Of a stretch of DNA of 64,000 nt, positions 2,739 to 59,375 are shown one piece after another (position 1 is the stretch's first letter; each line of letters starts with the position of its first letter). The notes beneath the pieces were generated by a model, which was given only the letters and a program-made list of their open reading frames with translations, searched no databases and was not told where the DNA came from. The translations under genes were made by a program, and so were the position numbers. Source of the stretch: Saccostrea echinata (taxonomy: Eukaryota); contig NW_026889795.1 in NCBI RefSeq assembly GCF_033153115.1, forward strand, positions 12,338,001 through 12,402,000. Direction: 5' to 3'.

Positions 2739-3055
2739 CAGGGTTGACTTGAAAATAACATTTTAAACCTTATTTTAAATTATATTTTTCTATCGTAAAA
2801 TTACAGAAAGTGTACTTTACCAACGTTGAAAGTTCATATCGTGAAATATTTTAACCCAAAGTAGCAGAAAAAAATCAGAAACTGTCTTCTATATTCTCAT
2901 TTCAGGAGGAAAGTTATTGAATATTTAGCTGCTTATTGTGTATAATACATAGTGTATCAGTAGGATTTAATAAGATATGGACGAAAACCTGCTACTCTCG
3001 ATACATAAAAGGAAAATGTAATTATAGATGTTGAAGGAATTTTCATACTTTTAAG

Positions 3056-3182
3056 GAATATGAAGATAACGAACAGTATTCAATCTTGAAAGTCCAATAA
3101 AACGATACAAATTTGGAGCAGAATAAACACAGACCTCAAAATTTAGAGGTGGGATCAGGTGCCCTGGAGGAGCGTATCATCC
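3056..3182 (-). mobile_element. 3' terminal fragment of a Penelope-like retroelement
   Basis: Reverse complement contains ggcacctgatcccacctct and ctgttcgttatcttca, shared with the element ends near 15100-15480 and 27218-27425. Confidence 0.65.
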
Positions 3183-3598
3183 ACATGGTTCTGGGTCTTC
3201 AAAATGTTTTGTAGGAAGAAAGCAGTGAAATGAGAGTGTATTTAATAGTAGAACCAAATCAAGATCTGGTTCTGGAAAAGGTCCGATAAAATGCTTACTC
3301 ACCATATGGGCAATAACATCCTCAATAATCAGTTGCTCACAGGCTTACTCTGTTATGGAACATGAAACTAACATGATAGGTTATTATATAAAAAAAGACA
3401 ACACATACATGTAACATCCTTCATCAGGTATTTATTGTCATGTGCTGAAGCTCTGAAGTTCCTTTAATGATATAAACGTCTTGTTTATTTGATTGTAATG
3501 ATTAAATTTAATATTTTCAATATCAGTATGAAGCTCCAAAGTTTTTAGATGATGATGATTGTTTATGAGAATGTAATTTTTGAATGTTTTATTTTCAG

Positions 3599-3645
3599 TA
3601 TGCTTGTGAAGAGAACAACAAGGAGTTCTGGATATAAACCTGATT
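3599..3645 (+). CDS. HPRT1: HPRT exon (MLVKRTTRSSGYKPD)
   Basis: ttttcag/gtaagt, 47 nt, phase-compatible; matches HPRT LLVKRTPRSVGYKPD. Confidence 0.95.
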
Positions 3646-3652
3646 GTAAGTA

Positions 3653-4588
3653 CAGGTAACTCTTGATGGCTCGAACTTCGAAGTTCTGGATCGCTTGAAG
3701 TGAATCTTCGGTCCCTGGGCAAATTTTCCCTTATATAACTAAGCAAATTTACTCTTCATTTCTCGAACTCTTGATCTCTCGAAACCCTTGATCCCCCAAA
3801 TCAAAATGCAGTCCTGCTATGCATATTCTATTATAATTTACCCTCGATACCTCGAAGTGGCTTTGTGTATACAAGGTTATATAATTAGCACCTTTACCTG
3901 GACATTTAAAATGGCCCCAGGCAGAAGACGCGGGTCCCGAGGAACGGGAGGTTTATTCAGGTGAGACTATGCTGCAAGGTGATAATTGATTTATAATTAA
4001 TTTTTTTTTTGCCTATATGCTATTAAAAAAAATTATCATCGACTGTCTTACGATAATTTAGAGACCCAGTGTCAGTGAAAAGTAGTAATTGATTAAAAGA
4101 CGAAACACTAATTTAAGTTTTATTTCGAGTCAGTACGTGTCAAAGTTAAACGAAATATGAAAAAGCAGAAACAGCCTTAATGTCAATATGGCGACTATTA
4201 TTGGACATACACTTACAGAACTGCGTTCAATGATCATGTTTGGAATAGTCAGTGCTATGTACAATGCTGTAAAAAGTCGTTTTCGTGTAACAAATGCGTA
4301 GTATGATGTCCGTATTACAAAACTAAATAATTATACATGAAATGATGATATACATTTTTTGCTTTACTCAGTTTAATGAAATATTCATCTAAATTACGAA
4401 AAAATATCATTGGTTTATAAAACCATGTGTAAAAGGTTATCACTGCATGAAAATCATTATATACGGTAAGACTAATTTTAAAAACTGTCAACAAACCTGG
4501 AAAATTCCGGACTCTTGAAAACTCGAACTCTTGATCTTTTGAAGTTTTTCCTTGGTCCCGCGGACTTCGAGGTATCGAGAGTTACCTG
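3653..4588. mobile_element. Non-autonomous Tc1/mariner/pogo-type element (936 bp)
   Basis: TA duplication (3651-52, 4589-90); TIR caggtaactcttgatggctcgaa vs caggtaactctcgatacctcgaa; subterminal ctcgaa motifs. Confidence 0.85.
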
Positions 4589-5275
4589 TACATGTCATGT
4601 GACTGGTTACCTGATGTCATGTGATCTGGTCATGTGCTTAATGTGGTTATAAACTTTTAATTATCAAACATCTTATCACTGTATCATTTTTGTTCAGATT
4701 AGTTACAATTTATTATAAGTCCACATAGTAACATATATAATATCATGTCTTTATATACATGTCTAAGCATATTTTTATATTTCCATAATGCTATTAAATA
4801 TTGTTGCTTTGAAAAGTGCAGTCTAAATTTTAACATTTAAAGAATGCATTTAATAGCTACCAAAATGGGTTGGGACAGTTTACAGTTCATGAACTGTGAA
4901 GTGGTTTATAAAAAAGCATAAAATGCTCCAACCCAGTTTATACCATATAAATTGGGTACATATTAAATTCATTCCTAATTATGATCTAATTTTCTTTCGT
5001 TCATTGTAAGAAAAGACAACTAATGTCCCTAAAAAATGACTTCAAATTCTGCAAAATTTAAGTGTGACATCAGGGGGATCAATGTGTTTATGACGCATGT
5101 TGTGACTTTGGCAACACAGTTTATAAAATATATATAGGATCTCCTATGGTTTGTGGCTGGTTATGATTTTTTATCCAACAAATTGTGTGTTTTTATCCCG
5201 GAGCTTTGGCAAATGAAATCTTACATGAAATCCCTGATACATGTAGTTTCATTGTGGGGTATGTTTAAATTTCAG

Positions 5276-5352
5276 ACACTGGGTTTGAAATCCCTGATAT
5301 TTTCATCGTGGGGTATGCCTTAGACTACAACGAATACTTCAGAGATCTTAAT
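5276..5352 (+). CDS. HPRT1: HPRT exon ([26 protein letters not shown])
   Basis: tttcag/gtaagt, 77 nt; conserved [20 protein letters not shown] motif. Confidence 0.97.
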
Positions 5353-5414
5353 GTAAGTAATGATATCCAGCTAACACAGTGATTCATTTAATGAAAGTAT
5401 TATAGTTAATATTA

Positions 5415-5592
5415 CAGTGAAATATGTCTACTCTGACATACACTGGGAGACATTTTGTGTTGGAATAGACAGGGTGTCAGATTGCACAGTGTAGCGAACA
5501 TGGAAAATAGTAAAATAGGAATGAAAATAAAGGCTGGAATTGATTTACAATAAAAAAGATTACACAGGTGTCTGATTAGACAGTTTTCACTG
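5415..5592. mobile_element. TA-flanked MITE (second copy at 55552-55728)
   Basis: ta|cagtgaaa ... tttcactg|ta; internal cactgggagaca shared with the second copy. Confidence 0.85.
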
Positions 5593-5812
5593 TATAAAAT
5601 CAACAGAATTATTATGACATGTATGTTTTAAGACAATTGAAATTGGAAGTATGCAACTGTTGCAGTCTCTTTCTTTGAATTTCAATAATTATCATTTTAA
5701 AGTACATGTTTAGGAACCTGACCTTAAACAGATGGATTTAATTTAAATTTACATGAATTAGTATTTTATGTTTTATTTCTTTAGAATTGATATGCATTTC
5801 TCTTTTTTATAG

Positions 5813-5863
5813 CATGTTTGTGAAATTAATGAGGCAGGCAAGAAGAAATATGCATCAAAATAA
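5813..5863 (+). CDS. HPRT1: HPRT last coding exon (HVCEINEAGKKKYASK*)
   Basis: ttttatag acceptor, TAA at 5861-5863; matches HPRT C-terminus HVCVISETGKAKYKA; AATAAA candidates downstream (first at 6256). Confidence 0.94.
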   Translation, partial: HVCEINEAGKKKYASK

Positions 5864-8800
5864 CGACAACCTTATTGTGTTAATGATGATATTAGAGCCT
5901 GGGACCATAACCCACCTTAGAAGATATCAGCTCAAATAACAATGATTATATAGAGATTACATGCTGGATAAACAGTAATTTTCCGAGATTACAAAATGTT
6001 ATAAGGTGAGAAAATCAGAATGAATTAGATTCTTTGCGATCAAACTGTTTACCGCTCTTGTTTTTCAGAAATTAGTTTTTTTTTTTGATATCTCACTATG
6101 TGAATTCAAATATTTATTCCCTCTTTAGTCAAAGAATACTTCTGTGTTTGTATGATTTGATATCTGTAATATCTATTTTTATAATAGGTATATTATATTT
6201 TTTTTTTCTGATTTTAAAAACGGAAGTTGGTTAAAAATATAAAAAAAATATTTTTAATAAAGTTCTCAAGCTTCCTTTTAAGATTTTTTTTCTTGTGGTA
6301 TGTGTTTGACTAAACGTTGTTTCCGTTGGAAGAAAATGAGTCATGTATATGTTTAATAAAAATGAGAGAAATATTTGTTATGAAAGCAATTTTGTCTGAT
6401 TTTGCAGCATAAGGTAGAATTGAGACCACTATGAAATCGTTTTTACTGACAAAATACAAACAGTGTCATTTGTTTTTATTTCAAATGTTTATGGTAATTT
6501 CAAAACAGAACAAAGAAAATCTTAATTGTACATTTTTACATCAAAATTTATGTAAGTTGACAAAGAAATTCTTGAAAGTACTAATAAATGCTGAAATATA
6601 TGAATGATTACAAAACTGGAATTTTTTAAAGCAGAACTTTGAAGAAGTTGGAACATTTCTTGCAGATTATTATATTGACGGGGAAAAATTATAGTACAAT
6701 AAAAGCAGAGGATATGTTAATAGTGGGAATTTAGAGGCGAAGAAATTAAGCTTAAATAAATCTCATTGCAGGTAGTTCATGTTCTGTATTATTTAAATTT
6801 AGACACATTCTGTTCTGTTTCCATTTGACTGTGTTGTACATGTTGTGACCAAAAATTTCCAGAACTGGTCTGTACATTGATTTTTACACAATATGAAAAA
6901 AAAATGTTCAGGAAAATCGGAAGTAATGTATTTCTAATAAATTGTTTAAGATTTACCAGATTGTATTGGCTTGTTTTCTATGAAAATAAATATTTTTTCT
7001 TTACACATTGTTGGGATTCAGAACTTCTTTAAAACAGAGAAATGTTCGGTTCATTATAAGTGATATTATCATCTGTATCAGTTTTAATGTGTGTGTATCA
7101 TTCAATAACTGTAAAAAGAGATTTAAAAAAGAAAGGACAAGATAGGCTAAGACCCCTTTTTGGCCCCTGAATTGTGGTGTACGATTGTGGTGTACAATAC
7201 AATAGGTCATCATCATAAGCCTGTTGTCATCCCTCTTACAAAATGAGTGTTGATTTTAAGTTATGGGGTACACGAAGGTCACAAAATATGTCAATTTCCG
7301 AATTTTCTCATTTTTATGCACATTTTTATCAATATTATAGCACATTTTGTTTCAGAAAACACAGAGCACAAGCTTGCCTATCTACCAAATTTATATATTT
7401 CACGCAGTAGTATTAGATGCTTCTTGTGTGTAAAAATCCCAGATAGGAAAGCTTGTGCTCTATGTTTCCCAAAGTGAAAAGTATCTCAATTTTAACAAAA
7501 TTCCATCAGAATTGAGGAGTTCGGGAAAATGTCCAACTTTAGCACCCTCTTGTGGTCTCCCTGTACTCTTTGAATTATGATTATTGCTTGTTTTGAAACA
7601 AGCAACAATTCAAGTTCTTAAATGCGAACTATCACCATTTTAACTGTTTCTTGATTTTTTTTAAATAATTTTTTTACATAAAGTAAGGGGCCAACTTCAG
7701 CTGTTACCATACCTTGTCCTTTAACAGTTATATAGGATTGAATTCAGGAAGGATAAAATTGTATCTTCCAAATTATACTAAAGTGGGTCACATTGACCTA
7801 CTTTTTGAATTTTAAATGTATTCATTTTCAGTTTGTTTAATACTTTGTCATTTAATGCAATTAACTTTACTTCGTACATCATAGTAAAATCAGGCGTATT
7901 TAGTTATAAAGCAACTATTTTCACATAATTTATCAAGTTAAACAAAAGAAAGGAATCCACAGGCTTCAAAGTCTATGAACTATTTTAAGGACCTATTTTT
8001 TTTTTTTTTATGATTTTTTAACTGATAGGTTGATTGACGTTGTCATAGTGTGTTTATGATGTTAAACTAAATTTCTCCAAGAGGGGTGCATAAAAATGTT
8101 ATAAATAAAATAGTATATTTATTAAGATGTTGAAATTTTAAAGAAAGGAATTTGAAAATCTTACATTTAGTTTCTGATAATTTTTTTTTTCATAAATTTT
8201 CGTATATGTCGTATTTTGTAGTCCTTAAAAACAGGAAAATTTCGTTTTTTTGTTTTTTTTTTACATTTTGAGATGCCCCCTTTGGAAACCAGACAATGGA
8301 ATTTTGTTTACTTACATATATTGTACAATACAGTAATACTCATCATAAATTTTATTTTGAGAAAAATGTCTATAATTGTAGTGTTTGTAAAATTTTCTTG
8401 ATGGTCCCTAAAATACTCAGACGATAGATGTTCTTGAAACTTGGCATGTACACTGAAGTCAATGTAAGTTTCCTATGATATAAAATTTGAGATTTTTTTG
8501 TTGTAGTTTTCACACATACACACACAAAAAACCCAAATCGGATTCTTAAGACTTCAGGGTTTGGCATAAAATAGATCATAGTGACCTTCTTACTGAAGTT
8601 TATGGCTGTTCATGTTCAAAACATTTTAGCTAAATGTTTTTGATACCAAGATGTTTGGGGTCAACTAAATTTATCAGATTAGGCATTTCTTTCTGAATTT
8701 TACTGTTTATTATTTTTACATTTTAAAGTATTGTAACCTCTTTTATTTCAACTATGTGATCTGCTGGGTCAACCAAGCCTATTTAATTGATGCATCATGG

Positions 8801-26571: not shown

Positions 26572-27217
26572 TATCATAGATTGAGAATTTTTTTTTTTTT
26601 GGAAAATATTGTATAAATATATCGCAATTTCTGAAAAAAAATATTTCAAGAAATAATATCAGTTTTAGAGATTCACTGGGATATGAAATAAAGCAGATCA
26701 CATGATAAAATCCTATAACGCCCTTCTGATCCCGTACCAACATCATACAATATACAATTGAAACTCTAAAACAAAGTATGTTTTTTTTCTTATTTTTAAT
26801 TTTTATTTGTCTTATAATGAAAAATTGGCATCTTATATCTTAATGAATATTTTCAAGGGATAACCAACCAATCACAACAGTGAACACACTCTTTTCACAC
26901 ACATACTTTACTCAGACACATCAACAAAACAACCAATACTTTCTCTAATCACAGAAGAGTTCTACACTCAGAGTTATCTCTCTTGATGTATGTTCTAGAA
27001 CATATTAACATTTACTATAAATTCCTTTTTCGAGGATATTTGATGGAGTTGTTAATAAAGAGATTTAACATATCAACATGGTCAATGAAAATCATTATAC
27101 TTAATATTTACATGTATTTATATTGACAATAATGATTCTCATTGGGTTAGACTATGCTCTGTTCACCAGGGAATTATTCTGCCCCTCTAGCATAGAGATG
27201 TATTTGAGAATTGTTAG

Positions 27218-27425
27218 ACCATTATTTACACACTGAATTGTCGACGGATTTTTTCGTTATTTCCCGATCATGACAAGGAGCACACGGCGGGTGTGACCGG
27301 TCGGCAGGGGATGCTCACTCCCCCATGGCACCTGATCCCACCTCTGGTGTTTGCTCTGCTCCTATTTTGTATTGTTTGGTGGACTTTTGAGCCTGAATAC
27401 TGTTCGTTATCTTCATATATTTCAT
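27218..27425 (+). mobile_element. 3' terminal fragment of a Penelope-like element
   Basis: Collinear with the 15050-15480 region once the Harbinger MITE is removed. Confidence 0.7.
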
Positions 27426-27444
27426 GCAATGTCTATCAAAAAAG

Positions 27445-27785
27445 TTCACACAAATTCTTCTGGCATCTTCCCTGTCTGGAGAATTTTAAGCTCCATACCA
27501 TTTGCTCCACGCTTGGTCATACAATTGGCTAGCTGCACTTTTCCTGGACACCATTTCACCTGTACATTATTGTTATTCTTAATTCACTTATTACATCTAT
27601 GTCAATTCTAAGGTGTTTGTCATCCACCATTTTTGTAGAAAGTGATGCCTCACAAACACTCTTGTTGTCAATAAATGCAGTGATTGGTATTATATCTACT
27701 TCCAATTTATACATATCCTCTTAGACTAGTAGTTTCCTGTAGTACAATGCATACTCTAGGCCCTCCTGCGAACTTTAGGCTTCTG
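27445..27785 (-). mobile_element. Ty1/Copia pol relic (RNase H C-terminus)
   Basis: Minus-strand peptides AFIDNKSVCEASLSTKMVDDKHLRIDID and VKWCPGKVQLANCMTKRGA (Copia DNxS, KHIDI and QLADxxTK motifs); frameshifted. Confidence 0.8.
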
Positions 27786-28115
27786 AAACAAACTAAACAT
27801 AGATTGAGAGAAAATAAGAAAAAACAAATTATTTTCACCTAATCAATAACAAATTTAAATATTATATACACATTCATTAAGATTTGAAACAAAAGAAGAT
27901 ATATATCAGACAAGATACAAAGTAATGCAATTTCTCATTAACGTGTAGGTTTATTTGCTTAAATTATTTCTTCTATAAAGAGAATAGTTAAAGACATATT
28001 TTCCTAGCGTATTACATTGTTTACAACTATAGTATGAAAAGAGGAATGTCATGCATGAAAGTAATAACATTTTCAAAATATCTTTTGATTATACTTTTTT
28101 TTTCAATATTTGTAG

Positions 28116-31100
28116 GTACAACCCTAATTGAAGATATCTTGAAAAGTTGGCGAGAAGATAACTCACAGTTTGTCCCAACAACCGCATGTAATTTTGTAGA
28201 AGAAAAAATTAAAAGTCAAAACCTGGTAACGGTTGTCGGAAATTCTGGATGCGGAAAAACTGCAACTATTCAACACATCGCACTGAAGTTTGAAGAAAAT
28301 GGATGGAATATCAAACCTGTCGATGAGGTAAAAGAAATAAAAGAAATATGTTCTCTTGAAATATCGCAAAATAATCGAATATTGTTTGTTCTAAATGATC
28401 CTATTGGTAAGGAGTCATTAGATGACGTTTCATATAATTCATGGAAAACGTATGAGAACACGCTAGCGACTTGCTTAAAGAAGGTAAAATTATTAGTGTC
28501 ATGTAGGAGATGTGTCATTTATGACAAAAGATTAGAAGGAATTCTCAAAAAGGACTCAAACATAGTAGAAATTGACAGCGAGAAATGGAAACTGTCAGCG
28601 GAAGAGAAAAGAAAGATCCTAAATAAATACTGTCAACATATGCATTTGTCTGAGGAAAATATCAAAGAAATTATTAGATCAGAAGCTTATTTTCCCTTGC
28701 TTTGTAAATTGTTTTCAAATGAATCAACTTACAAAAAGAAAGGAATATGTTTATTTAAACACCCCTTTGAAATCATGAAAAAGGACATCGTACGTTTGAA
28801 AGAATTAGATAAAAAGAAATATTGCGGCTTAATTTTGATTGTGGTTTTTAACAATAACTTGAATGTTGAAACCATCAGAGGCAAGGACAATTCTTTCCAG
28901 AAATACAGAGACATTTTAAGAATATGTGAACTATCAGAAAATACAAATATAGCAGTCATTCGCAGTACCCTCCATCAACTTAAAGGGTCACTGGTCAAAT
29001 GTGTCGGACATACTTTCCAATTCCTTCACGATTTCATCATGGAAATATCGACATTGGTACTTGGTGTCGATTGCCCAAAAGAGACAATACAGTACGCAGA
29101 CAGTAGTTTTCTGCGACGTCGGATGAGAATAGACGACGATACAGAAGAGAAAGATCGAGATCCCTTCACTGTTTACCTGCCTGAAGAATACATTGGAGAT
29201 CTTGTGGACAGGTTTATTATTGACATGCAAACACAACACCTTGTAGATGTTCTGCTCAATCCATGTTTAAGGAAAAAGAATGTGATCAAATCTTTTAAGG
29301 AAAAAGTTGATTCACCCGGAAAGCTTCTTGTCAGAATTAAATGTGAAATAGACAGATCGGAATTTTCAAAATCATTTGAAGGCACTGGATTGTCAAGGCT
29401 TGGTTTCCTTGATTTGTACTGTGAAATATGTCCTTTGGTCGGACTTATCGTATTTTGTCATAATGATATTTCTTCTTTTTTCTTAAACACAATCCCTGAA
29501 ACTAAGTTGAAAGAATATCCAATATTCTCTGCTATATGTGCGAATGGCGATTTAAACCTATTAAATTTTCTCAGTGAGGAATATAAAAAATCAGCAATGA
29601 TCGAAACATGGAATTCATTTTTACCAATTCACATTGCTTCTGTATTTTATAATTTTTCAATAATTGGGGAATTGGTAAGATTCGGTGCTGACGTAAACAA
29701 GCTAACAACTGATGACAGGTGGTCTCCATTATCATTAACTGCTGCAAATGACGACGAACATATGAAAGAAGCCGGAATAGATACAGATAAGGGAGAAAGA
29801 CGTAATGCAACCATTATTTGCTTATTAAACAATGGCTCTGACATCAATTTATGTACCAACGATAGCGTCAGTCCTCTTAATATGGCTTGTCAAAATGGAC
29901 ATGATATTACGGTACAACTGTTACTAAACAACGGTGCTGACATTAACTTATGTAACAAGAATGGAGTCAGTCCTCTTTATTTAGCTTGTGAAAATGGACA
30001 TGATAGCACGGTACAACTGTTACTGAACAACGGTGCTGATATCAATTTATGTGAAAATGATGGAGTCAGTCCTCTTTATATAGCTTGTTATAATGGACAT
30101 GATAGCTCGGTACAACTGTTACTGAACAACGGTGCCGACATCAATTTATGTGAAAATGATGGAGTCAGTCCTCTTTATATAGCTTGTCAAAATGGACATG
30201 ATAAAACTGTTCAACTGTTACTGACCAACGGTGCCGACATCAATTTATGTGAAACTGATGGAGTCAATCCTCTTCATATAGCTTGTCAAAATGGACATGA
30301 TAAAACTGTACAACTGTTACTGAACAACGGTGCCGACATCAATTTATGTGAAAATGATGGAGTCAGTCGTCTTTATATAGCCTGTGAAAATGGACATGAT
30401 AGCACGGTGCAACTGTTACTGAACAACGGTGCCGATATCAATTTATGTAGTAATAATGGAGTCAGTCCTCTTTATATAGCTTGTCAAAATGGACATAATA
30501 GTACGGTACAACTATTACTGAACAACGGTGCCGACATCAATTCGTGTGATAATGATGGAGACAGTTCTCTTTATATAGCTTGTGAAAATGGATATGATAG
30601 CACGATACAATTGTTACTGAACAACGGTGCTGACATTAATTTACGTAACAAGAATGGAGTCAGTCCTCTTCATATAGCTTGTCAAAATGGACATGATAAA
30701 ACTGTACAACTGTTACTGAACAACGGTGCCGACATCAATTTATGTGAAAATGATGGAGTCAGTCCTCTTTATATAGCCTGTAAAAATGGACATGATAGCA
30801 CGGTACAACTGTTACTGAACAACGGTGCCGATATCAATTTATGTGAAAATGATGGAGTCAGTCCTCTTTATATAGCTTGTTATAATGGACATGATAGCAC
30901 GGTACAACTGTTACTGAACAACGGTGCCGATATCAATTTATGTGAAAATGATAGATTTAGTCCTCTTTATATAGCCTGTGAAAATGGACATGATAGCACG
31001 GTACAACTGTTACTGAACAACGGTGCCAACATCAATTTATGTAGTAATGATGGAGTCAGTCCTCTTTGTATAGCTTGTCAAAATGGAAATGACAGAACCG

Positions 31101-34100
31101 TACAACTGTTACTGAACAACGGTGCCGACATCAATTTATGTAATAATGATGGATTCAGTCCTCTAAGTATAGCCTGCCAAGTTGGACACGATAGCAATGT
31201 TCAGCTATTACTGAACAACGGTGCCGACATTAATTTATATAGTAATGATGGAGTCAGTCCTCTTAATATAGCTTGTCAAAATGGACATGATCAAACGGTA
31301 CAACTGTTACTGAACAACGGTGCCGACATCAATTTATGTGAAAATGATGGAGTCAGTCCTCTTTATATAGCCTGTGAAAATGGACATGATAGCACGGTAC
31401 AACTGTTACTGAACAACGGTGCCGATATCAATTTACGTGAAAATGATGGAGTCAGTCCTCTTTATATAGCTTGTTATAATGGACATGATAGCACGGCACA
31501 ACTGTTACTGAACAACGGTGCCGATATCAATTTATGTGAAAATGATAGATTCAGTCCTCTTTATATAGCCTGTGAAAATGGACATGATAGCACGGTACAA
31601 CTGTTACTGAACAACGGTGCCAACATCAATTTATGTAGTAATGATGGAGTCAGTCCTCTTTGTATAGCTTGTCAAAATGGAAATGACAGAACCGTACAAC
31701 TGTTACTGAACAACGGTGTCGACATCAATTTATGTAATAATGATGGATTCAGCCCTCTAAGTATAGCCTGCCAAGTCGGACACGATAGCAATGTTCAGCT
31801 ATTACTGAACAACGGTGCCGACATTAATTTATATAGTAATGATGGAGTCAGTCCTTTTAATATAGCCTGCCAATTTGGACATGATCAAACGGTACAACTG
31901 TTACTGAACAACGGTGCCGACATCAATTCATGTGATAATGATGGAGACAGTCCTCTTTATATAGCTTGTCAAAATGGACATGATAGCTCGGTACAACTGT
32001 TACTGAACAACGGTGCCGACATCAATTTATGTGAAAATGATGGAGTCAGTCCTCTTTATATAGCTTGTCAAGTTGGACATGATAAAACTGTTCAACTGTT
32101 ACTGACCAACGGTGCCGACATCAATTTATGTGAAACTGATGGAGTCAATCCTCTTCATATAGCTTGTCAAAATGGACATGATAAAACTGTACAACTGTTA
32201 CTGAACAACGGTGCCGACATCAATTTATGTGAAAATGATGGAGTCAGTCGTCTTTATATAGCCTGTGAAAATGGACATGATAGCACGGTGCAACTGTTAC
32301 TGAACAACGGTGCCGATATCAATTTATGTAGTAATAATGGAGTCAGTCCTCTTTATATAGCTTGTCAAAATGGACATAATAGTACGGTACAACTATTACT
32401 GAACAACGGTGCCGACATCAATTCGTGTGATAATGATGGAGACAGTTCTCTTTATATAGCTTGTGAAAATGGATATGATAGCACGATACAATTGTTACTG
32501 AACAACGGTGCTGACATTAATTTACGTAACAAGAATGGAGTCAGTCCTCTTCATATAGCTTGTCAAAATGGACATGATAAAACTGTACAACTGTTACTGA
32601 ACAACGGTGCCGACATCAATTTATGTGAAAATGATGGAGTCAGTCCTCTTTATATAGCCTGTGAAAATGGACATGATAGCACGGTACAACTGTTACTGAA
32701 CAACGGTGCCGATATCAATTTATGTGAAAATGATGGAGTCAGTCCTCTTTATATAGCTTGTTATAATGGACATGATAGCACGGTACAACTGTTACTGAAC
32801 AACGGTGCCGATATCAATTTATGTGAAAATGATAGATTCAGTCCTCTTTTTATAGCCTGTGAAAATGGACATGATAGCACGGTGCAACTGTTACTGAACA
32901 ACGGTGCCGATATCAATTTATGTAGTAATAATGGAGTCAGTCCTCTTTATATAGCTTGTCAAAATGGACATAATAGTACGGTACAACTATTACTGAACAA
33001 CGGTGCCGACATCAATTCGTGTGATAATGATGGAGACAGTTCTCTTTATATAGCTTGTGAAAATGGATATGATAGCACGATACAATTGTTACTGAACAAC
33101 GGTGCTGACATTAATTTACGTAACAAGAATGGAGTCAGTCCTCTTCATATAGCTTGTCAAAATGGACATGATAAAACTGTACAACTGTTACTGAACAACG
33201 GTGCCGACATCAATTTATGTGAAAATGATGGAGTCAGTCCTCTTTATATAGCCTGTGAAAATGGACATGATAGCACGGTACAACTGTTACTGAACAACGG
33301 TGCCGATATCAATTTATGTGAAAATGATGGAGTCAGTCCTCTTTATATAGCTTGTTATAATGGACATGATAGCACGGTACAACTGTTACTGAACAACGGT
33401 GCCGATATCAATTTATGTGAAAATGATAGATTCAGTCCTCTTTTTATAGCCTGTGAAAATGGACATGATAGCACGGTACAACTGTTACTGAACAACGGTG
33501 CCAACATCAATTTATGTAGTAATGATGGAGTCAGTCCTCTTTGTATAGCTTGTCAAAATGGAAATGACAGAACCGTACAACTGTTACTGAACAACGGTGC
33601 CGACATCAATTTATGTAATAATGATGGATTCAGTCCTCTAAGTATAGCCTGCCAAGTTGGACACGATAGCAATGTTCAGCTATTACTGAACAACGGTGCC
33701 GACATTAATTTATATAGTAATGATGGAGTCAGTCCTCTTAATATAGCTTGTCAAAATGGACATGATCAAACGGTACAACTGTTACTGAACAACGGTGCCG
33801 ACATCAATTTATGTGAAAATGATGGAGTCAGTCCTCTTTATATAGCCTGTGAAAATGGACATGATAGCACGGTACAACTGTTACTGAACAACGGTGCCGA
33901 TATCAATTTACGTGAAAATGATGGAGTCAGTCCTCTTTATATAGCTTGTTATAATGGACATGATAGCACGGCACAACTGTTACTGAACAACGGTGCCGAT
34001 ATCAATTTATGTGAAAATGATAGATTCAGTCCTCTTTATATAGCCTGTGAAAATGGACATGATAGCACGGTACAATTGTTACTGAACAACGGTGCCAACA

Positions 34101-34606
34101 TCAATTTATGTAGTAATGATGGAGTCAGTCCTCTTTGTATAGCTTGTCAAAATGGAAATGACAGAACCGTACAACTGTTACTGAACAACGGTGCCGACAT
34201 CAATTTATGTAATAATGATGGATTCAGTCCTCTAAGTATAGCCTGCCAAGTTGGACACGATAGCAATGTTCAGCTATTACTGAACAACGGTGCCGACATT
34301 AATTTATATAGTAATGATGGAGTCAGTCCTCTTAATATAGCCTGCCAATTTGGACATGATCAAACGGTACAACTGTTACTGAACAACGGTGCCGACATCA
34401 ATTCATGTGATAATGATGGAGACAGTCCTCTTTATATAGCTTGTCAAAATGGACATGATAGCTCGGTACAACTGTTACTGAACAACGGTGCCGACATCAA
34501 TTTATGTAACAAGGATGATGTAAGTCCCCTGTCGATAGCTAAAAAAAATGGACATGACAGTACAGTCAAACTATTAGTTAACAATGTCGCCTTATCAATC
34601 TCATGA
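28116..34606 (+). CDS. Receptor last exon: STAND-type (nSTAND3-like) P-loop NTPase, helical region and ~50 ankyrin repeats
   Basis: 6.5-kb open frame; T-rich tract plus tgtag acceptor at 28111-28115 in phase 1; Walker A GNSGCGKT (28238-28261); Walker B-like ILFVLND; KLLVSCR sensor-like strand; FPLLC (GxP-like position); FQFLHDFI (MHD-like); ankyrin consensus SPLxIACxxGH..VQLLLNNGADIN. Confidence 0.93.
29861..34603 (+). repeat. Coding tandem array: 47 full 99-bp ankyrin units plus a divergent terminal capping unit
   Basis: Exact 33-aa period with no indels; units counted from the translation. Confidence 0.96.
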
Positions 34607-37819: not shown

Positions 37820-39410
37820 ATACAAGAATACATGAAAACAATGGATAAATGTATTAAAGAATATTCTTTATCTATAACGTCAAAATTAGAAAATTTACAG
37901 AAAAGTGATATTAAGGAATATTGGAGAATTTTAAATAGTTCGAAGGCTAGATGTAAAACTGAAGTTGATATCAAAGCAATGTACGATTTTTTGAAGAAAA
38001 AAAAATAATGAATCTAAAGATGATGAAGGTGATGTAGATGATAATGATGTCAATTTCGATAATAACTCCCCTTTAAATTGTCAAATCTCTGCAGAAGAAA
38101 TCTTGCAAGCAGTTAACAAACTGAAAAATAATAAAGCTCCAGGGTATGATCAATTCTGTAACGAATATATTAGTACAACAATATCATGTTTTTTGCCACT
38201 ATATATTGACCTTTTCAATTTGATTTTTGATACTGGTTTTGTACCTGAGGAATGGCTTATTGGTATCGTTAAGCCAATTTATAAAAACAAGGAAGACCCA
38301 CCTCTTCCTGAAAACTATAGACCAATAACACTATTAAGCTGTTTAGGAAAAGTATTTACCAGTATTTTATGTGAGCGTTTGGATACTTTTTCTGATGAAT
38401 TATAATTGATTACTGAAGCCCAAGCTGGCTTTAGAAAAGGATATGGTACAAAAGATAACATATTGATATTAGATTTTTTGTGTAAATTTGTTTCTTTTAG
38501 TAAGAAAAAAACTTTATTGTGCATTTATTGACTTTAAACAAGCCTTTGATGCTGCTTGGCGATCGATCTGGTTTGTGGTCCAAAGTGTTTAAAAGTGGTA
38601 TAGATGGTAAATGTCTAAGATTTATCAAATATATGTACAGTGGTATTAAATCGAAGATATATATTGATCAAAATATCTCTGAATTTTTCATGTGTAACCT
38701 TGGGGTAAGACAAGGGGAAAATTTATCCCAATTTCTTTTTACTTTATATATTAACAATTTAGAAAACTATTTATTGCAGAATAATATTGAAGGGGTTACG
38801 AGATTTGATGAAAAATTAGAAATTGAAATGCAGATAATATTTAACTTTTTTAGACTTTTTTATGCTGATGACACAGTTTTATTATCTGATAATCCAGAGG
38901 ATTTACAAAGATCTTTGAATATTTTCTCTGATTATTGTGACCATTGTAAGCTTCAAGTAAATACAGACAAGAATAAAATAGTAATTTTTTCTAGAGGAAG
39001 AATACCAAAGAAAATATTTTTGTATAGAGGTGCACCAATTGAAATTGTGAACGAATTTAAATATTTACAATGTAGGTGTTATCATGTCTCGTAGTGGTTT
39101 CTTCAGAAGTGCCAAAACACATTTAACTAAACAAGCATCAAAAGCCATGTATGGAGTACTTAGAAAAATAAGGTATTTTAATTTACGGTATACACTTAAA
39201 ATTTCTGAAATTTGTTTTACATGTTGAATCCAGCACTCCAAATTGTATGGTATATATATGGGGAAACTGGGCGATACCCTTTAATAATACGTATAAAGGC
39301 ACGAATGATTACTTATTGGGTTAAACTTTTGATGTCACATGAACGTAAGTTTACATATATAATGTATTGCTTTCTCCATAAATGCTTTTCTGAAGGTTTA
39401 TTTATGCATC
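37820..39410 (+). mobile_element. Degenerate non-LTR retrotransposon (LINE) reverse transcriptase; clade not assigned
   Basis: KAPGYD, NYRPITLLSCLGK, QAGFRKG, FIDFKQAFD, GVRQGENLS and FYADD motifs; interrupted by stops and frameshifts. Confidence 0.9.
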
Positions 39411-39411
39411 A

Positions 39412-39938
39412 CACATATTAATAAGGTACACTACTAACACAAATGTCGAGTCACTATACTACTAACACACATGTCGAGTCACTATACTACTAACACACAT
39501 GTCGAGTCACTACACTACTTACACACATGTCGAGTCACTACACGACTGAAATATACATTAAAAATAACAATATTAAATCACACGATGAGCTATACCAGAA
39601 ACACATATAAAATTATACATTCCCAACACATGAGTCACCATACTACATGTACAACTCACATAACAAACAACAAAATTACCACACATAATAAGCTACACTA
39701 CTAACACACATGTGGAGTCACTACAGAACTAACACACATGTCAAGTAACTACAGAACTAACACACATGTCGAGTCACTACACTACTAGCACACATGTCGA
39801 GTCACTACACTTCTTATATATATTAATTACAACTAACAATATTAAATCACACACAATGAGTTATACCAGTTACACATATAAAATTATACGTTACCAACAC
39901 ATGAGTCAACATACAACATGTACAACTCACATAACAAA
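39412..39938. repeat. Composite CA-rich satellite, short block
   Basis: 28-bp subunit acacacatgtcgagtcactacactacta within longer units; same family as 47740-51590. Confidence 0.9.
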
Positions 39939-47739: not shown

Positions 47740-50700
47740 TGCTCACACATAGCAAGAGGCTACTCTAACTTACACAGTAAGTCAACACTCTTCTAAACTA
47801 ACTCAACATGAAAACACATAATGAGCTACACTACTTACACACATATTGAGTCACTACATGACTATTACACATAAAAATAACAATATTAGCACACAAAATG
47901 AGCTACATGTACACTACCGCAGGTAAAATTCTACATTCCCAACACAAAATGAATCCCATGCTACATGTACAACAAACAAATCAAAATAACAATACAAAAT
48001 ATGTATTACAAATACATGTAACAATATTAAAACTTACAATGAGCCATACCAGTAACACACATAAAATTATACATTCCCAACAAATGAGTCACCATACTAC
48101 ATGTACAACTCACATAACAAATAACAAAAGTACCACACATAATAAGCTACACTACTTACACACATGTCGAGTCACTACAGAACTAACACACATGTCAAGT
48201 AACTACACTACTTACACACATGTCAAGACACTACACTACTTACACACATGTTGAGTCACTACACTACTGATATATACCTTACAAATAACAATTTTAAATC
48301 ACACGATGAGCAATACAAGTAACACACATAAAATTATACATTCCCAACACACGAGTCACCATACTACATGTACGACTCACATAACAAATAACAAAATTAC
48401 CACACATAATAAGCTACACTACTTACACACATGTCGAGTCACTACAGAACTAACACACATGTCAAGTAACTACACTACTTACACACATGTCAAGACACTA
48501 CACTACTTACACACATGTTGAGTCACTACACTACTGATATATACCTTACAAATAACAATTTTAAATCACACGATGAGCAATACAAGTAACACACATAAAA
48601 TTATACATTCCCAACACACGAGTCACCATACTACATGTACGACTCACATAACAAATAACAAAATTACCACACATAATAAGCTACACTACTAACACACATG
48701 TTGATTCACTACACTACTAACACACATGTCGAGTCACTACACTACTTACACACATGTCCAGTCACTACACTTCTAATATATAACTTACAAATAACAGTTT
48801 TAAATCGCACGATGAGTTATACAAGTAACACATTTAAAATTATACAATCCCGACACACCAGTCACCATACTACATGTACAACTCACATAACAAATAACAA
48901 AATTACCACACATCATAAGCTACACTCATAAAACACATGCCGAGTCACTACACTACTTACACACATGTTGAGTCACTACACTACTTACACACATATCGAG
49001 TCACTACACTTCTAATATATACCTTACAAATAATAGTTTTAAATCGCGCAATGAGTTATACAAGTAACACATTTAATATTATACAATCCCGACACACCAG
49101 TCACCATACTACATGTACAACTCACATAACAAATAACAAAATTACCACACATCATAAGCTACACTCATAACACACATGTCGAGTCACTACACTACTTACA
49201 CACATGTCGAGTCACTACACTACTTACACACATGTCGAGAAATTCGCTGGATTAAACGACATTCCGGATTAGACAACATTTAAAACAATTGAGTCTACTG
49301 CAGGTGACTTAAAGTTAACATTGTATAAGTCAAGTTTTTGGAGTACACAACATCCGAATAAGACAAGTTTCACTGTATATTACAAATAACAATATAAGAA
49401 CACATGAGGAGCTTTACCAATAACACACATAAAATCACATATTCCCCACACGTAATGAGTCAACATACTACATGTACAACACACATAACAAATAACAAAA
49501 TTACCACACATAAAAAGCTACACTACAAACACACATGTCGAGTCACTACACTATTAACACACATGTCGAGTCACTACACTTCTAATATATACATTACAAA
49601 TAACAACATTAAATCACATGATGAGCTATACCAGTAACACACATAAAACAAGAAGTCTGTGAGCCAATGCTCACTGGTAATACCTCCGCTGTGATTTGAA
49701 TATACACTATCATGTGTATATTCACAAGTTCAACTATGGACAGATGCATGAATAAACAGGAAGTTGATATCAGATTCATACAAAAATGAATCCCACCATA
49801 TGACAATTATGCGTCAACAAAGAGTGTGCTAAAATTTCAAGCATCTGCAATGAGTTGTTGCTGAGAAAACTTTGACAAAAATTTGTTCCATATTATACAG
49901 ACAGACGCACAGTTAAACAGGAAGTTGACATCAAATTCAGAAATGAATCCCATCATATGGCATGCCTAAACAAAGAGTGTGTAAACTTTCATGCATCTGC
50001 AATAAGTAGTTGATGAGAAACTGCAACAAATATTTGTTATATATGGTATAGACAGACACACAGATAAACAGGAAGTCGACATCAGACTTGTACAAAAATA
50101 AATCCCACGATATGGCATGCCAAAATAAAGAATGTGCTAAAATTTCAAGCATCTGCTCTGAGTAATTGCTGAAAAAACTGCGAAAAAAAATTCGTTATGT
50201 ATGGTACGGACAGACGCACAGATAAAAAGGAAGTTGGCATCAAATTCATACAAAAATGAATCCCACCATATGACATGCCTCAGCAATGAGTGTGCTAAAA
50301 TTTCAAGCAATAAGTAGTGCTTAGAAAACTGCGACGAAAATGTGTTATGTGTGGTATGGACAGACACATGGATAAACAGGAAGTTGACATCAGATTTGTA
50401 TGAAAATGATTCCCACCAAGCCTAAACAAAGAGTATGCTAAAATTTCAAGCATCTGCAATGAGTAGTTGCTGAGAAAACTGTGACCAAAAATTTGTTATG
50501 GACAGTCAGACAGACACACACACAGCTAGACAGACAAGGGTAAAACAGTATCTTTTGGAGCAAGAATATAATAATACATTCCCAACACATGAGTCACCAT
50601 ACTACATGTACAACACACATAACAAATAACAAAATTACCACACATAATAAGCTACACTACTAACACACATGTCGAGTCACTACACTACTAACACACATGT

Positions 50701-51590
50701 CGAGTCACTACACTACTAACACACATGTCGAGTCACTACACTAATGAAATATACATTACAAAAAAAATTATTAAAACACACAATGAGCTATACCAGTAAC
50801 ACACATCAAATTAAAATATACTTTCCCAACACATGAGTTGCCATACTACATATACAACAACCATAACAAATAACAAAAATACCACATATAATAAGCTACA
50901 CTTCAAACACACATGTCGAGTCACTACACTACTAACACACATGTCATGTCACTACACACTAACATACTTGTGGAGTCACTACAATACTAATATATACACT
51001 ACATATAACTATATTAAAACACACACAATGAGTTATACAAGTAACACACATAAAATTATACATTCCCAACACATGAGTCACCATACTACATGTACAACTC
51101 ACATAACAAATAACAAAATTACCACACATAATAAGCTACACTACTAACACACATGTCGAGTCACTACACTACTAACACACATGTCGAGTCACTTTACTAC
51201 TAATATATACATTACAAATAACCATTTTAAATCACACGATGAGGCATATCAGTAACATACATAAAATTATACATTCCTAACACACGAGTCACCATACTAC
51301 ATACGTACACAAAATAACCACACATCATAAGCTACACTCATAACACACATGTCGAGTCACTACACTACTTACACACATGTCGAGTCACTACACTACTAAT
51401 ATATATTACAAAAAACAATATTTACACACATTATGAGTTATACCAGTAACACACATAAAATTATACATTAATTCCCAACACATGAGTCACCATACTATAT
51501 GTACTATCATACATGTAAAACTAATAACAAAATTACCACACATAACGAGCTATACTACTAACACACATTTCAAGTCACTACACTACCATT
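47740..51590. repeat. Composite satellite: higher-order unit of 239-267 bp with variable numbers of a 28-bp subunit
   Basis: Periods of 267 bp (48306 to 48573) and 239 bp (48698 to 48937) differ by exactly one 28-bp subunit. Confidence 0.92.
49648..50570. mobile_element. Helitron/Helentron-type non-autonomous element with ~5 internal ~152-bp tandem repeats, inserted in the satellite
   Basis: acaagaag..gtgagc..gctcac terminus, gaca microsatellite at the other end, no TSD; satellite resumes across it. Confidence 0.7.
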
Positions 51591-58779: not shown

Positions 58780-59375
58780 AACAAGAGGCCCAGGGGCCAC
58801 ATCGCTCACCTGAGCACTATGGCTAGGAAAAAGCAGAATTCAGTTCAGTCTTGAAAGGTTGAAAAGTTTAAATAAAAAAGTGGTTGGGGGGGGGTGTCAT
58901 GAATTGAACAAATTTGAATCTAAATTATCTGAGGATGCTTCAATTTAAATATGACCAAACATGACTTTGCTGTTCTTGAGTAGAAGATTTTTAAAGATTT
59001 AACCTATGTATTCCTATGTAAAACTTTGATCGCCCATTGTGGCCCCACCCGACCCCCGGGGGTCATGATTTGAACAAACTTGAATCTACACTATCTGAGG
59101 AGGCTACCATATAAATATGACCAATCATGGCTTTGCTGTTCTTGAGAGAAAATTTTTAAAGATTATTCCTATATATTCCTATGTAAAACTTTGATCGCCC
59201 ATTGTGGCCCCACCCGACCCCCAGGGGTCATGATTTGAACAAACTTGAATCTACACTACCTGAGGATGCTTCCACATAAGTTTCATATTTTCAAGCACAG
59301 TGGTTCTTGAGAAGAAGATTTTTTAATGATGCCATTAATTTTTCACAAATTCTTAATTATCTCCCCTTGGAAGAA

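Follow-up and report, generated by a model that had tools for sequence, protein, structure and literature searches.

The sequence examined is a 64,000-bp stretch of the genome of the oyster Saccostrea echinata (NCBI RefSeq assembly GCF_033153115.1, contig NW_026889795.1, positions 12,338,001 to 12,402,000), referred to here as the window, and its main feature is an array of 48 ankyrin repeats. All gene features given below lie on the forward (+) strand and are numbered from the first nucleotide of the window. From the sequence, the array forms the C-terminal portion of an nSTAND3 NTPase gene whose start lies approximately 11 kb upstream and which was overlooked in the initial annotation. A seven-exon model encoding a protein of approximately 2,400 amino acids was predicted for this gene, in which every readable exon border is AG/GT, phases match, and internal stops are absent. 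Exon 7 (28116..34606) is a single open frame of 2,163 codons that holds the NTPase, a helical middle region, the ankyrin array, and the stop codon closing the array frame (34604-34606); the stop-to-stop frame holding the array has 2,204 codons. The nSTAND3 domain (PF20720, 28169..28639) was matched over the whole model (E=1.5e-21, 77 bits against a cut-off of 27.2) and includes the Walker A motif GNSGCGKT (28238-28261). Degenerate ankyrin-like repeats ahead of the array (29537..29752) gave a weak Ank_2 match (E=0.02, below the cut-off), and the profile scan finds one unit there. The NACHT score for the gene was only E=0.025, below the cut-off, no HEPN or CARD match was obtained in the window and none to SIR2 in the profile scans, and in a PDB sequence search the NTPase region had only P-loop hits to ABC transporters.

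The exons upstream encode a Cys-rich ectodomain and a transmembrane (TM) helix, which form the predicted N-terminus. Predicted exon 1 (18751..18792) comprises an ATG and a hydrophobic, signal-peptide-like start of 14 codons with a phase-0 GT donor; exon and donor are conserved in a tandem paralog (L082), there approximately 14 kb upstream of exon 2, and the product resembles the N-terminus of P0045. Predicted exon 2 (20385..20583), the first half of the ectodomain, is stop-free with AG/GT borders and phases 0 to 1, has 70 matches in the genome, and is 72-80% identical to P0044-P0046. The ectodomain continues in predicted exon 3 (20884..20988, phase 1 to 1, 91-93% nucleotide identity in tandem paralogs) and ends in predicted exon 4 (25250..25322, phase 1 to 2, conserved in paralogs). 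The visible part of predicted exon 5 (25565..25762) encodes a Ser/Thr stalk, the TM helix (25654-25719), and a basic KRKR stop-transfer sequence. Its acceptor is unreadable in the window (part of intron 4/exon 5), and paralogs L066 and L068 have a phase-2 acceptor just before the equivalent codons. Predicted exon 6 (25967..26053, phase 1 to 1, conserved in paralogs) encodes a cytoplasmic linker of 28 amino acids, and the model leaves approximately 85 residues between the TM helix and Walker A. Parts of exon 7 are closely covered by contigs of runs X1, X2, and X3, guessed to be RNA (for example, 0 differences in 154 nt and 6 in 368 nt). Run contigs on 25570-29860 contained no joint across predicted introns and covered exons 5-6 scantly; this is not evidence against splicing. 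A likely non-autonomous DNA transposon of 2 kb (22196-24251), which has terminal inverted repeats of 32 nt (97%) as well as subterminal repeats, lies in intron 3, and intron 6 carries a high-copy interspersed repeat (27209-27426) with very high depth in all four runs.

The array was cut into units from 29861 and comprises 47 full units of 99 bp (29861-34513) followed by a divergent C-terminal capping repeat (34514..34603), which differs from all other units at a minimum of 34 nt; Tandem Repeats Finder reports 47.7 indel-free copies of 99 bp. In a table of 56 variable columns every unit fitted the 48-unit labelling of the initial annotation, as 47 units and the cap. Units 1-3 (29861..30157) precede a 19-unit block, units 4-22 (30158..32038), which includes an older 6-unit duplication (units 10-15 and 16-21), and the second copy of the block, with a later 6-unit duplication, forms units 23-47 (32039..34513). 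The repetition of the block from 32039 was borne out by nucleotide differences of 2, 0, 0, 0, 0, 0, 1, and 0 between units 4-11 and 23-30 and of 0-3 per unit between units 7-22 and 32-47; for the older duplication (units 10-15 against 16-21) the differences were 2, 1, 1, 1, 2, 7, and 6. Mean unit-to-unit distance falls at lags of 6, 19, 25, and 31 units, and the longest exact repeats are 631 nt (lag 25 units), 627 nt (lag 6), and 589 nt (lag 19). The block structure also exceeded chance, with 15 unit pairs no more than 2 nt apart at the best lag against a mean of 5.2 and a maximum of 10 in 2,000 shuffles of unit order. Unit 31 (32831..32929), named earlier as a recombinant, indeed carries I-type marks in its 5' part and C-type marks in its 3' part, and represents the crossover of the late 6-unit duplication. 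A short K-type tract is present in unit 23.

These relationships fit an order of events in which the old 6-unit duplication was followed by the 19-unit duplication and then by the late 6-unit duplication, an order that also fits a Tyr-to-Phe change found in units 31 and 37 only and not in units 12, 18, and 43. Unit number and order have changed through in-register unequal crossing-over and conversion, with the frame and scaffold kept and hybrid units produced. Only 29 of the 47 units are distinct at the DNA level (26 distinct peptides, 24 identical unit pairs, 79% mean pairwise amino-acid identity), so the late duplications lengthened the array instead of adding surfaces. Units 7-9 have no exact copy elsewhere in the assembly (best outside match 89%), and hence neither a second allele nor exact exchange of units between genes was seen. 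Repeats of high internal conservation (HIC) have been defined by a repeat identity of at least 85% across a minimum of 100 amino acids (PMC4986451; statements taken from publications refer here and below to the parts of each source that were covered). By the 631-nt exact repeat and the 24 identical pairs, and not by T-REKS, the array is of this kind.

By sequence comparison, the gene belongs to an expanded family. In the genome 119 nSTAND3 matches were counted, split fragments included, and this number is a lower bound; the paralog survey took in 64 of the loci, most of them with open frames of about 800 amino acids or more. At least four ankyrin units (4-44) were found in 47 of the 64, and the window gene is the most homogeneous, with 102 unit pairs within 4 nt against 18 in the next, L017. 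Several paralog arrays have higher-order periods of their own (L017 at 3040-7797, 7 units; L018, 8/16; L041, 3), and another array, approximately 75% identical to the window units, lies between tandem paralogs (L083:2300-4100, C46:12119300-12121100). Long-frame nSTAND3 genes with only 0-1 ankyrin units were also recorded (L042, L045, L046, L048-L050, L054, L056-L064), as were pairs of equal-length nSTAND3 frames (L052/L053 on C16, 2523 amino acids; L056/L057 on C23 and C154, 1601; L060/L061 on C3 and C52, 1644), which suggest recent duplicates or haplotype copies.

Exons 2-7 recur in the same order in two tandem paralogs less than 250 kb away, in one of which the TM exon is more diverged (42% at the amino-acid level). 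Seven other loci have an ectodomain exon that is 3-30 kb upstream of an nSTAND3 match and shares its strand, and in each of them a TM-like exon lies between the two. The tandem neighbours have 7 units (L001, ends early), 30 units (L002, stops and frameshifts), and 20 units (L006, frameshift), against 48 in the window. Exon 7 is 97% identical between the window gene and L002/L067, with a synonymous divergence (dS) of 0.05 against 0.24 in the ectodomain exons, whereas comparison with L001/L065 gave dS of 0.36 in exon 7 and 0.20 in the ectodomain. From this contrast, cytoplasmic and extracellular halves would have been exchanged among tandem copies, and L002/L067/L068 appears to be a mosaic pointing to recent exchange of the cytoplasmic half.

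Selection on the repeats was assessed by position. Repeat positions 2, 3, 5, 13, 14, and 33, which we take to be those randomised in designed ankyrin repeat proteins (DARPins), correspond to unit positions 33, 1, 3, 11, 12, and 31, and the register of this mapping was checked against DARPin chain 6mol. The earlier statement that changes cluster at such positions stood in part. The six positions hold 34% of the amino-acid entropy (permutation p=0.025), and in a codon model of the window gene the ratio of nonsynonymous to synonymous rates (omega) was 1.28 there against 0.60 elsewhere (likelihood ratio test p=0.008), but the most variable unit positions by entropy are 7, 32, and 16, none of them DARPin-randomised. 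Positions 7 and 32 presumably flank the groove, and position 16 presumably lies past the GH turn. Scaffold positions are under purifying selection, and a parsimony count gave an overall pN/pS (nonsynonymous to synonymous changes per site) of 0.53 with groove rates near the synonymous rate. A nine-site 'face' set (omega 1.62, p=0.053) was set aside because it includes sites picked after seeing the data. The randomisation of paratope positions in DARPins has been described (PMC8683736).

Tree-free pairwise ratios were calculated for 18 of 48 arrays, each with at least 5 distinct units and at least 10 pairs within 30 nt. Groove variation exceeded non-groove variation in all 18, and the bootstrap interval excluded 1 in five (L017, 3.42; L036, 2.97; L014, 1.83; L018, 1.82; L032, 1.81). 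These five arrays and the window array, chosen after the pairwise ratios were known, were then simulated with neutral surface sites, conversion, and unequal crossover, with rate variation among sites in two of the sets. The ratios observed for the five paralogs were reached by 0/200 and 0-1/300 neutral simulations, and the divergence at the window's four most divergent sites (32, 16, 7, 11) by 0/200, 6/300, and 26/300. Codon-model p values were 5e-7 and 2e-8 for L017 and L036. Among the 18 genes examined, selection on the groove, as judged from codons, appears secure for L017 and L036 and has good support for L014, L018, and L032; for the window gene it is suggestive only.

The closest proteins are from Saccostrea (62-67% identity), followed by Magallana and Crassostrea (33-43%); two S. 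echinata proteins are identical to paralogous loci in the genome, and family genes carry the database names 'ankyrin-1-like' or 'uncharacterized'. Among 43 oyster homologs, 15 have the ectodomain and TM helix, 15 have HEPN_DZIP3 (one has both), 2 have CARD, and the remainder have no recognisable N-terminus. The full layout of ectodomain, TM helix, nSTAND3, and ankyrin repeats is present in 15 of the 43, including P0011 and P0021, whose frames are continuous on Logan contigs of 4.1 and 5.0 kb, as would fit spliced mRNA. The spacing from TM helix to Walker A is 37-153 residues in 24 homologs and 765 in P0042. A quick tree, for which N-terminal labels were assigned manually and from motif patterns, places TM-type genes next to HEPN-type sisters in several clades (support 99-100). 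HEPN exons are present in L004, L005, and L006, the closest sisters within the genome. From these two observations, the N-terminus would occupy an effector slot.

The ectodomain has approximately 12 conserved cysteines and fits no Pfam family, and the 25 top Pfam matches obtained with 94 ectodomain proteins included no Ig family. An AlphaFold model of a homolog ectodomain is confident (predicted local distance difference test score 93, predicted template modelling score 0.84) and shows a small Cys-rich alpha/beta domain. Foldseek gave no match to the model at E<=0.001, which does not show a new fold, and VIA-align gave one chain at Z 2.0 among 48,161; structure searches with a TM-bearing model were dominated by matches to the helix. 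Atlas neighbours are mollusc clusters only, unnamed, and the family comprises 1,109 clusters at 50% identity. Among three tandem copies the ectodomain has omega 0.40-0.44, indicating purifying selection. A fusion scan of 34 proteins longer than 400 amino acids, out of 150 listed, found nSTAND3 in 11, ankyrin repeats only in 8, Roc/COR in 5, no partner in 6, and ApoL, a scramblase, Ig, and EGF-laminin in 1 each. The fusions to Roc/COR GTPases, apolipoprotein L, and scramblase (P0127, P0153, P0168, P0172, P0187, P0132, P0107) would, on sequence grounds, represent a modular mollusc receptor system. Dense clusters of ectodomain exons were also observed on contigs C44, C49, C38, and C40 of G000, with no nSTAND3 match there.

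Elsewhere in the window, a fragmented reverse transcriptase (37995-39094; RVT_1, E=8e-15) is likely a decayed long interspersed nuclear element. Satellites were found at 47860-51400, 39410-39811, 58896-59323, and 1978-2724; their types are higher-order repeats of 239-267 bp built of 28-bp units, a 158-bp array, a 165-bp repeat, and a 38/48-bp array.

Judged by its domains, the window gene would belong to the broad NOD-like receptor (NLR)-like class of STAND proteins, with a P-loop STAND NTPase and C-terminal superstructure-forming repeats, and is neither a canonical NLR (NACHT and leucine-rich repeats) nor a TRADD-N receptor. Fungal NLRs have highly conserved ankyrin repeats with positive selection in the groove (PMC4986451), and a study that found HIC repeats to be enriched among ATPase proteins across all domains of life mentions nSTAND3 in a figure legend and no oyster in the text covered (PMC13449251). 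As in the fungal HIC NLRs (Podospora HET-D/HET-E; NACHT-ANK Pa_3_8560; PMC4986451, PMC13449251, PMC12222747), a STAND NTPase is followed by near-identical repeats, and concerted evolution, variable groove positions, swappable N-terminal modules, and birth and death of copies are also common to both. The comparison with fungal NLRs made in the initial annotation was strengthened by the STAND NTPase directly before the array, the expanded family, and the five paralogous arrays with groove excess. Unlike the fungal proteins, the oyster gene is animal, has nSTAND3 instead of NACHT/NB-ARC and an ectodomain and TM helix at its N-terminus, and lacks a cytoplasmic N-terminal cell-death effector, although sister genes have HEPN or CARD. 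Its array has 48 units with higher-order blocks, whereas functional het alleles have 11 and the longest fungal ankyrin case cited in these sources has 21. By analogy, the gene would function as a fungal HIC NLR does, with the front end of a membrane receptor.

Approximately 50 proteins of C. virginica combine a Cys-rich ectodomain, a TM helix, DED, and TRADD-N with variable STAND/HEPN/ankyrin tails (Kaur et al. 2021, PMC8195603). The window gene resembles these in its oyster Cys-rich extracellular domain and TM helix with cytoplasmic STAND and ankyrin parts, but differs in that the approximately 85 residues from the TM helix to Walker A leave no room for DED and TRADD-N. P0042 of C. virginica, which has the ectodomain, a TM helix, a long unassigned stretch, HEPN, nSTAND3, and ankyrin repeats, likely belongs to that expansion, and through it the window ectodomain would be the same domain as in PMC8195603. 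The part of that paper covered contains nothing on repeat shuffling or selection. The sea cucumber membrane NLRs AjNLRC4 and AjNLR-new (PMC13133943) likewise unite, in a marine invertebrate, a STAND NTPase with a TM segment and an extracellular part, but have an Ig domain and NACHT and, in the part covered, no highly conserved ankyrin array; a separate origin may be supposed. Bacterial Avs5 (10.1101/2025.07.08.663546) also contains nSTAND3 with C-terminal repeats implicated in recognition of intruder proteins, but is prokaryotic, with a SIR2 effector and TPR/Sel1/PPR repeats. Expansions of DZIP3-HEPN have been reported in oyster (PMC3710099) and of HEPN-NACHT in corals (PMC8260672). No account of oyster nSTAND3-ankyrin genes, of a direct TM-nSTAND3-ankyrin layout, or of shuffling of oyster STAND repeats was found in the literature covered, in which the term nSTAND3 occurs in 5 papers; this literature takes in few subscription journals and neither the supplement of PMC13449251 nor the source data of PMC8195603, either of which may list such proteins.

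It seems fairly probable that the array forms the C-terminal repeats of a predicted single-pass receptor and acts as a cytoplasmic ligand sensor, its surface diversified by unequal crossing-over and its output given at the cell surface. By extension from what is known of STAND proteins (NLRs, bacterial Avs5), the NTPase would be kept off by the ankyrin solenoid, and a ligand in the ankyrin groove would cause nucleotide exchange and oligomerisation of the NTPase. Oligomerisation would then cluster whichever module is N-terminal: here the membrane anchor and ectodomain, in sister genes a HEPN nuclease or CARD. Since the membrane anchor and ectodomain stand in the HEPN/CARD position, the output would be at the surface (inside-out), and the reshuffled repeats are likely, by analogy, a variable sensor of intruder molecules inside the cell. 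A membrane-tethered intracellular sensor is favoured because of this placement on closely related NTPases and because the array, and not the ectodomain, which is under purifying selection among tandem paralogs, is the changing part. The same two observations tell against the converse arrangement, which we regard as fairly unlikely, in which an outside ligand or cell is bound by the ectodomain, the NTPase is driven by clustering, and the array, drifting in length, serves as a scaffold for signalling partners of the host. That arrangement would suit the type I receptor layout of the predicted exons, the joining of ectodomain and TM helix to varied cytoplasmic modules in the 34 long proteins, and the diversity of the ectodomain family; related TRADD-N receptors were interpreted so by Kaur et al. 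(PMC8195603), and groove selection is not significant in TM-type arrays.

Several results weigh against the membrane-tethered sensor. The window omega of 1.28 at DARPin positions is not significantly greater than 1 (p=0.43), the window pairwise ratio of 1.32 has an interval of 0.74-2.29 and was reached by 16/200, 58/300, and 71/300 neutral simulations, and 13 of the 18 arrays do not exceed 1, the two other TM-type arrays tested giving 0.85 (L001) and 0.78 (L020). No selected paralog is known to be of TM type; HEPN lies upstream in L036, and four lack an N-terminal domain in the DNA retrieved. The groove positions vary in all ankyrin proteins, so concentration of variation there is expected without selection. 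The ectodomain is found on many proteins without a STAND domain and may itself be a ligand-binding domain, and of the four close tandem copies, three (L001, L002, L006) appear truncated or disrupted, so much of the turnover may be neutral. The nonsynonymous surface excess anticipated by the initial annotation was not significant in this copy and was present in five paralogous arrays; recombination-driven expansion is upheld by nested duplications and hybrid units, whereas positive selection at DARPin positions is not shown for this copy. The suggested variation between cells (somatic) was dropped, as nothing was found pointing to it. Wholly neutral turnover, in which near-identical in-frame repeats expand by unequal crossover, the surface is merely unconstrained, and 48 units arise without adaptive diversity, is improbable: the window omega compatible with 1, the 29 distinct units, and the decaying neighbouring copies agree with it, but the frame remains open for 6.5 kb and the scaffold is conserved, the four top sites lie above most of the neutral simulations, and five paralogs show a clear excess. 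A false join producing the 19-unit duplication, for example of two alleles, is very improbable. The block copies are more than 99% identical and HIC repeats mis-assemble from short reads (PMC12222747), but the array runs for 4.7 kb without an indel on a 12.4 Mb contig, and its differences are nested (the Tyr-to-Phe change in units 31 and 37) as sequential duplication predicts; even if such a join were true, 19-29 units and the older duplication would remain.

A more far-reaching form of the membrane-tethered sensor, which we consider unlikely, is that approximately a hundred oyster nSTAND3 sensors have grooves diversified by repeat shuffling, and that in one inside-out branch a cytoplasmic ligand, sensed by the shuffled array, causes NTPase oligomers to form and the mollusc-specific Cys-rich ectodomain, clustered on the cell surface, marks cells as infected or non-self for haemocytes. 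Fungal allorecognition NLRs would then have a counterpart in animals, with highly polymorphic alleles.

To our knowledge, few canonical NLRs are on record in bivalves. The occurrence of HIC repeats on STAND proteins, animals included, has already been published, as has an oyster receptor of related layout, and the present case is the less surprising for it. The nSTAND3-ankyrin family, with its interchangeable HEPN, CARD, and membrane-receptor front ends, would be a candidate intracellular sensor repertoire in farmed oysters, and diversifying selection in some of its arrays would carry the repeat-shuffling mechanism of fungi over to an animal, with support at the codon level.

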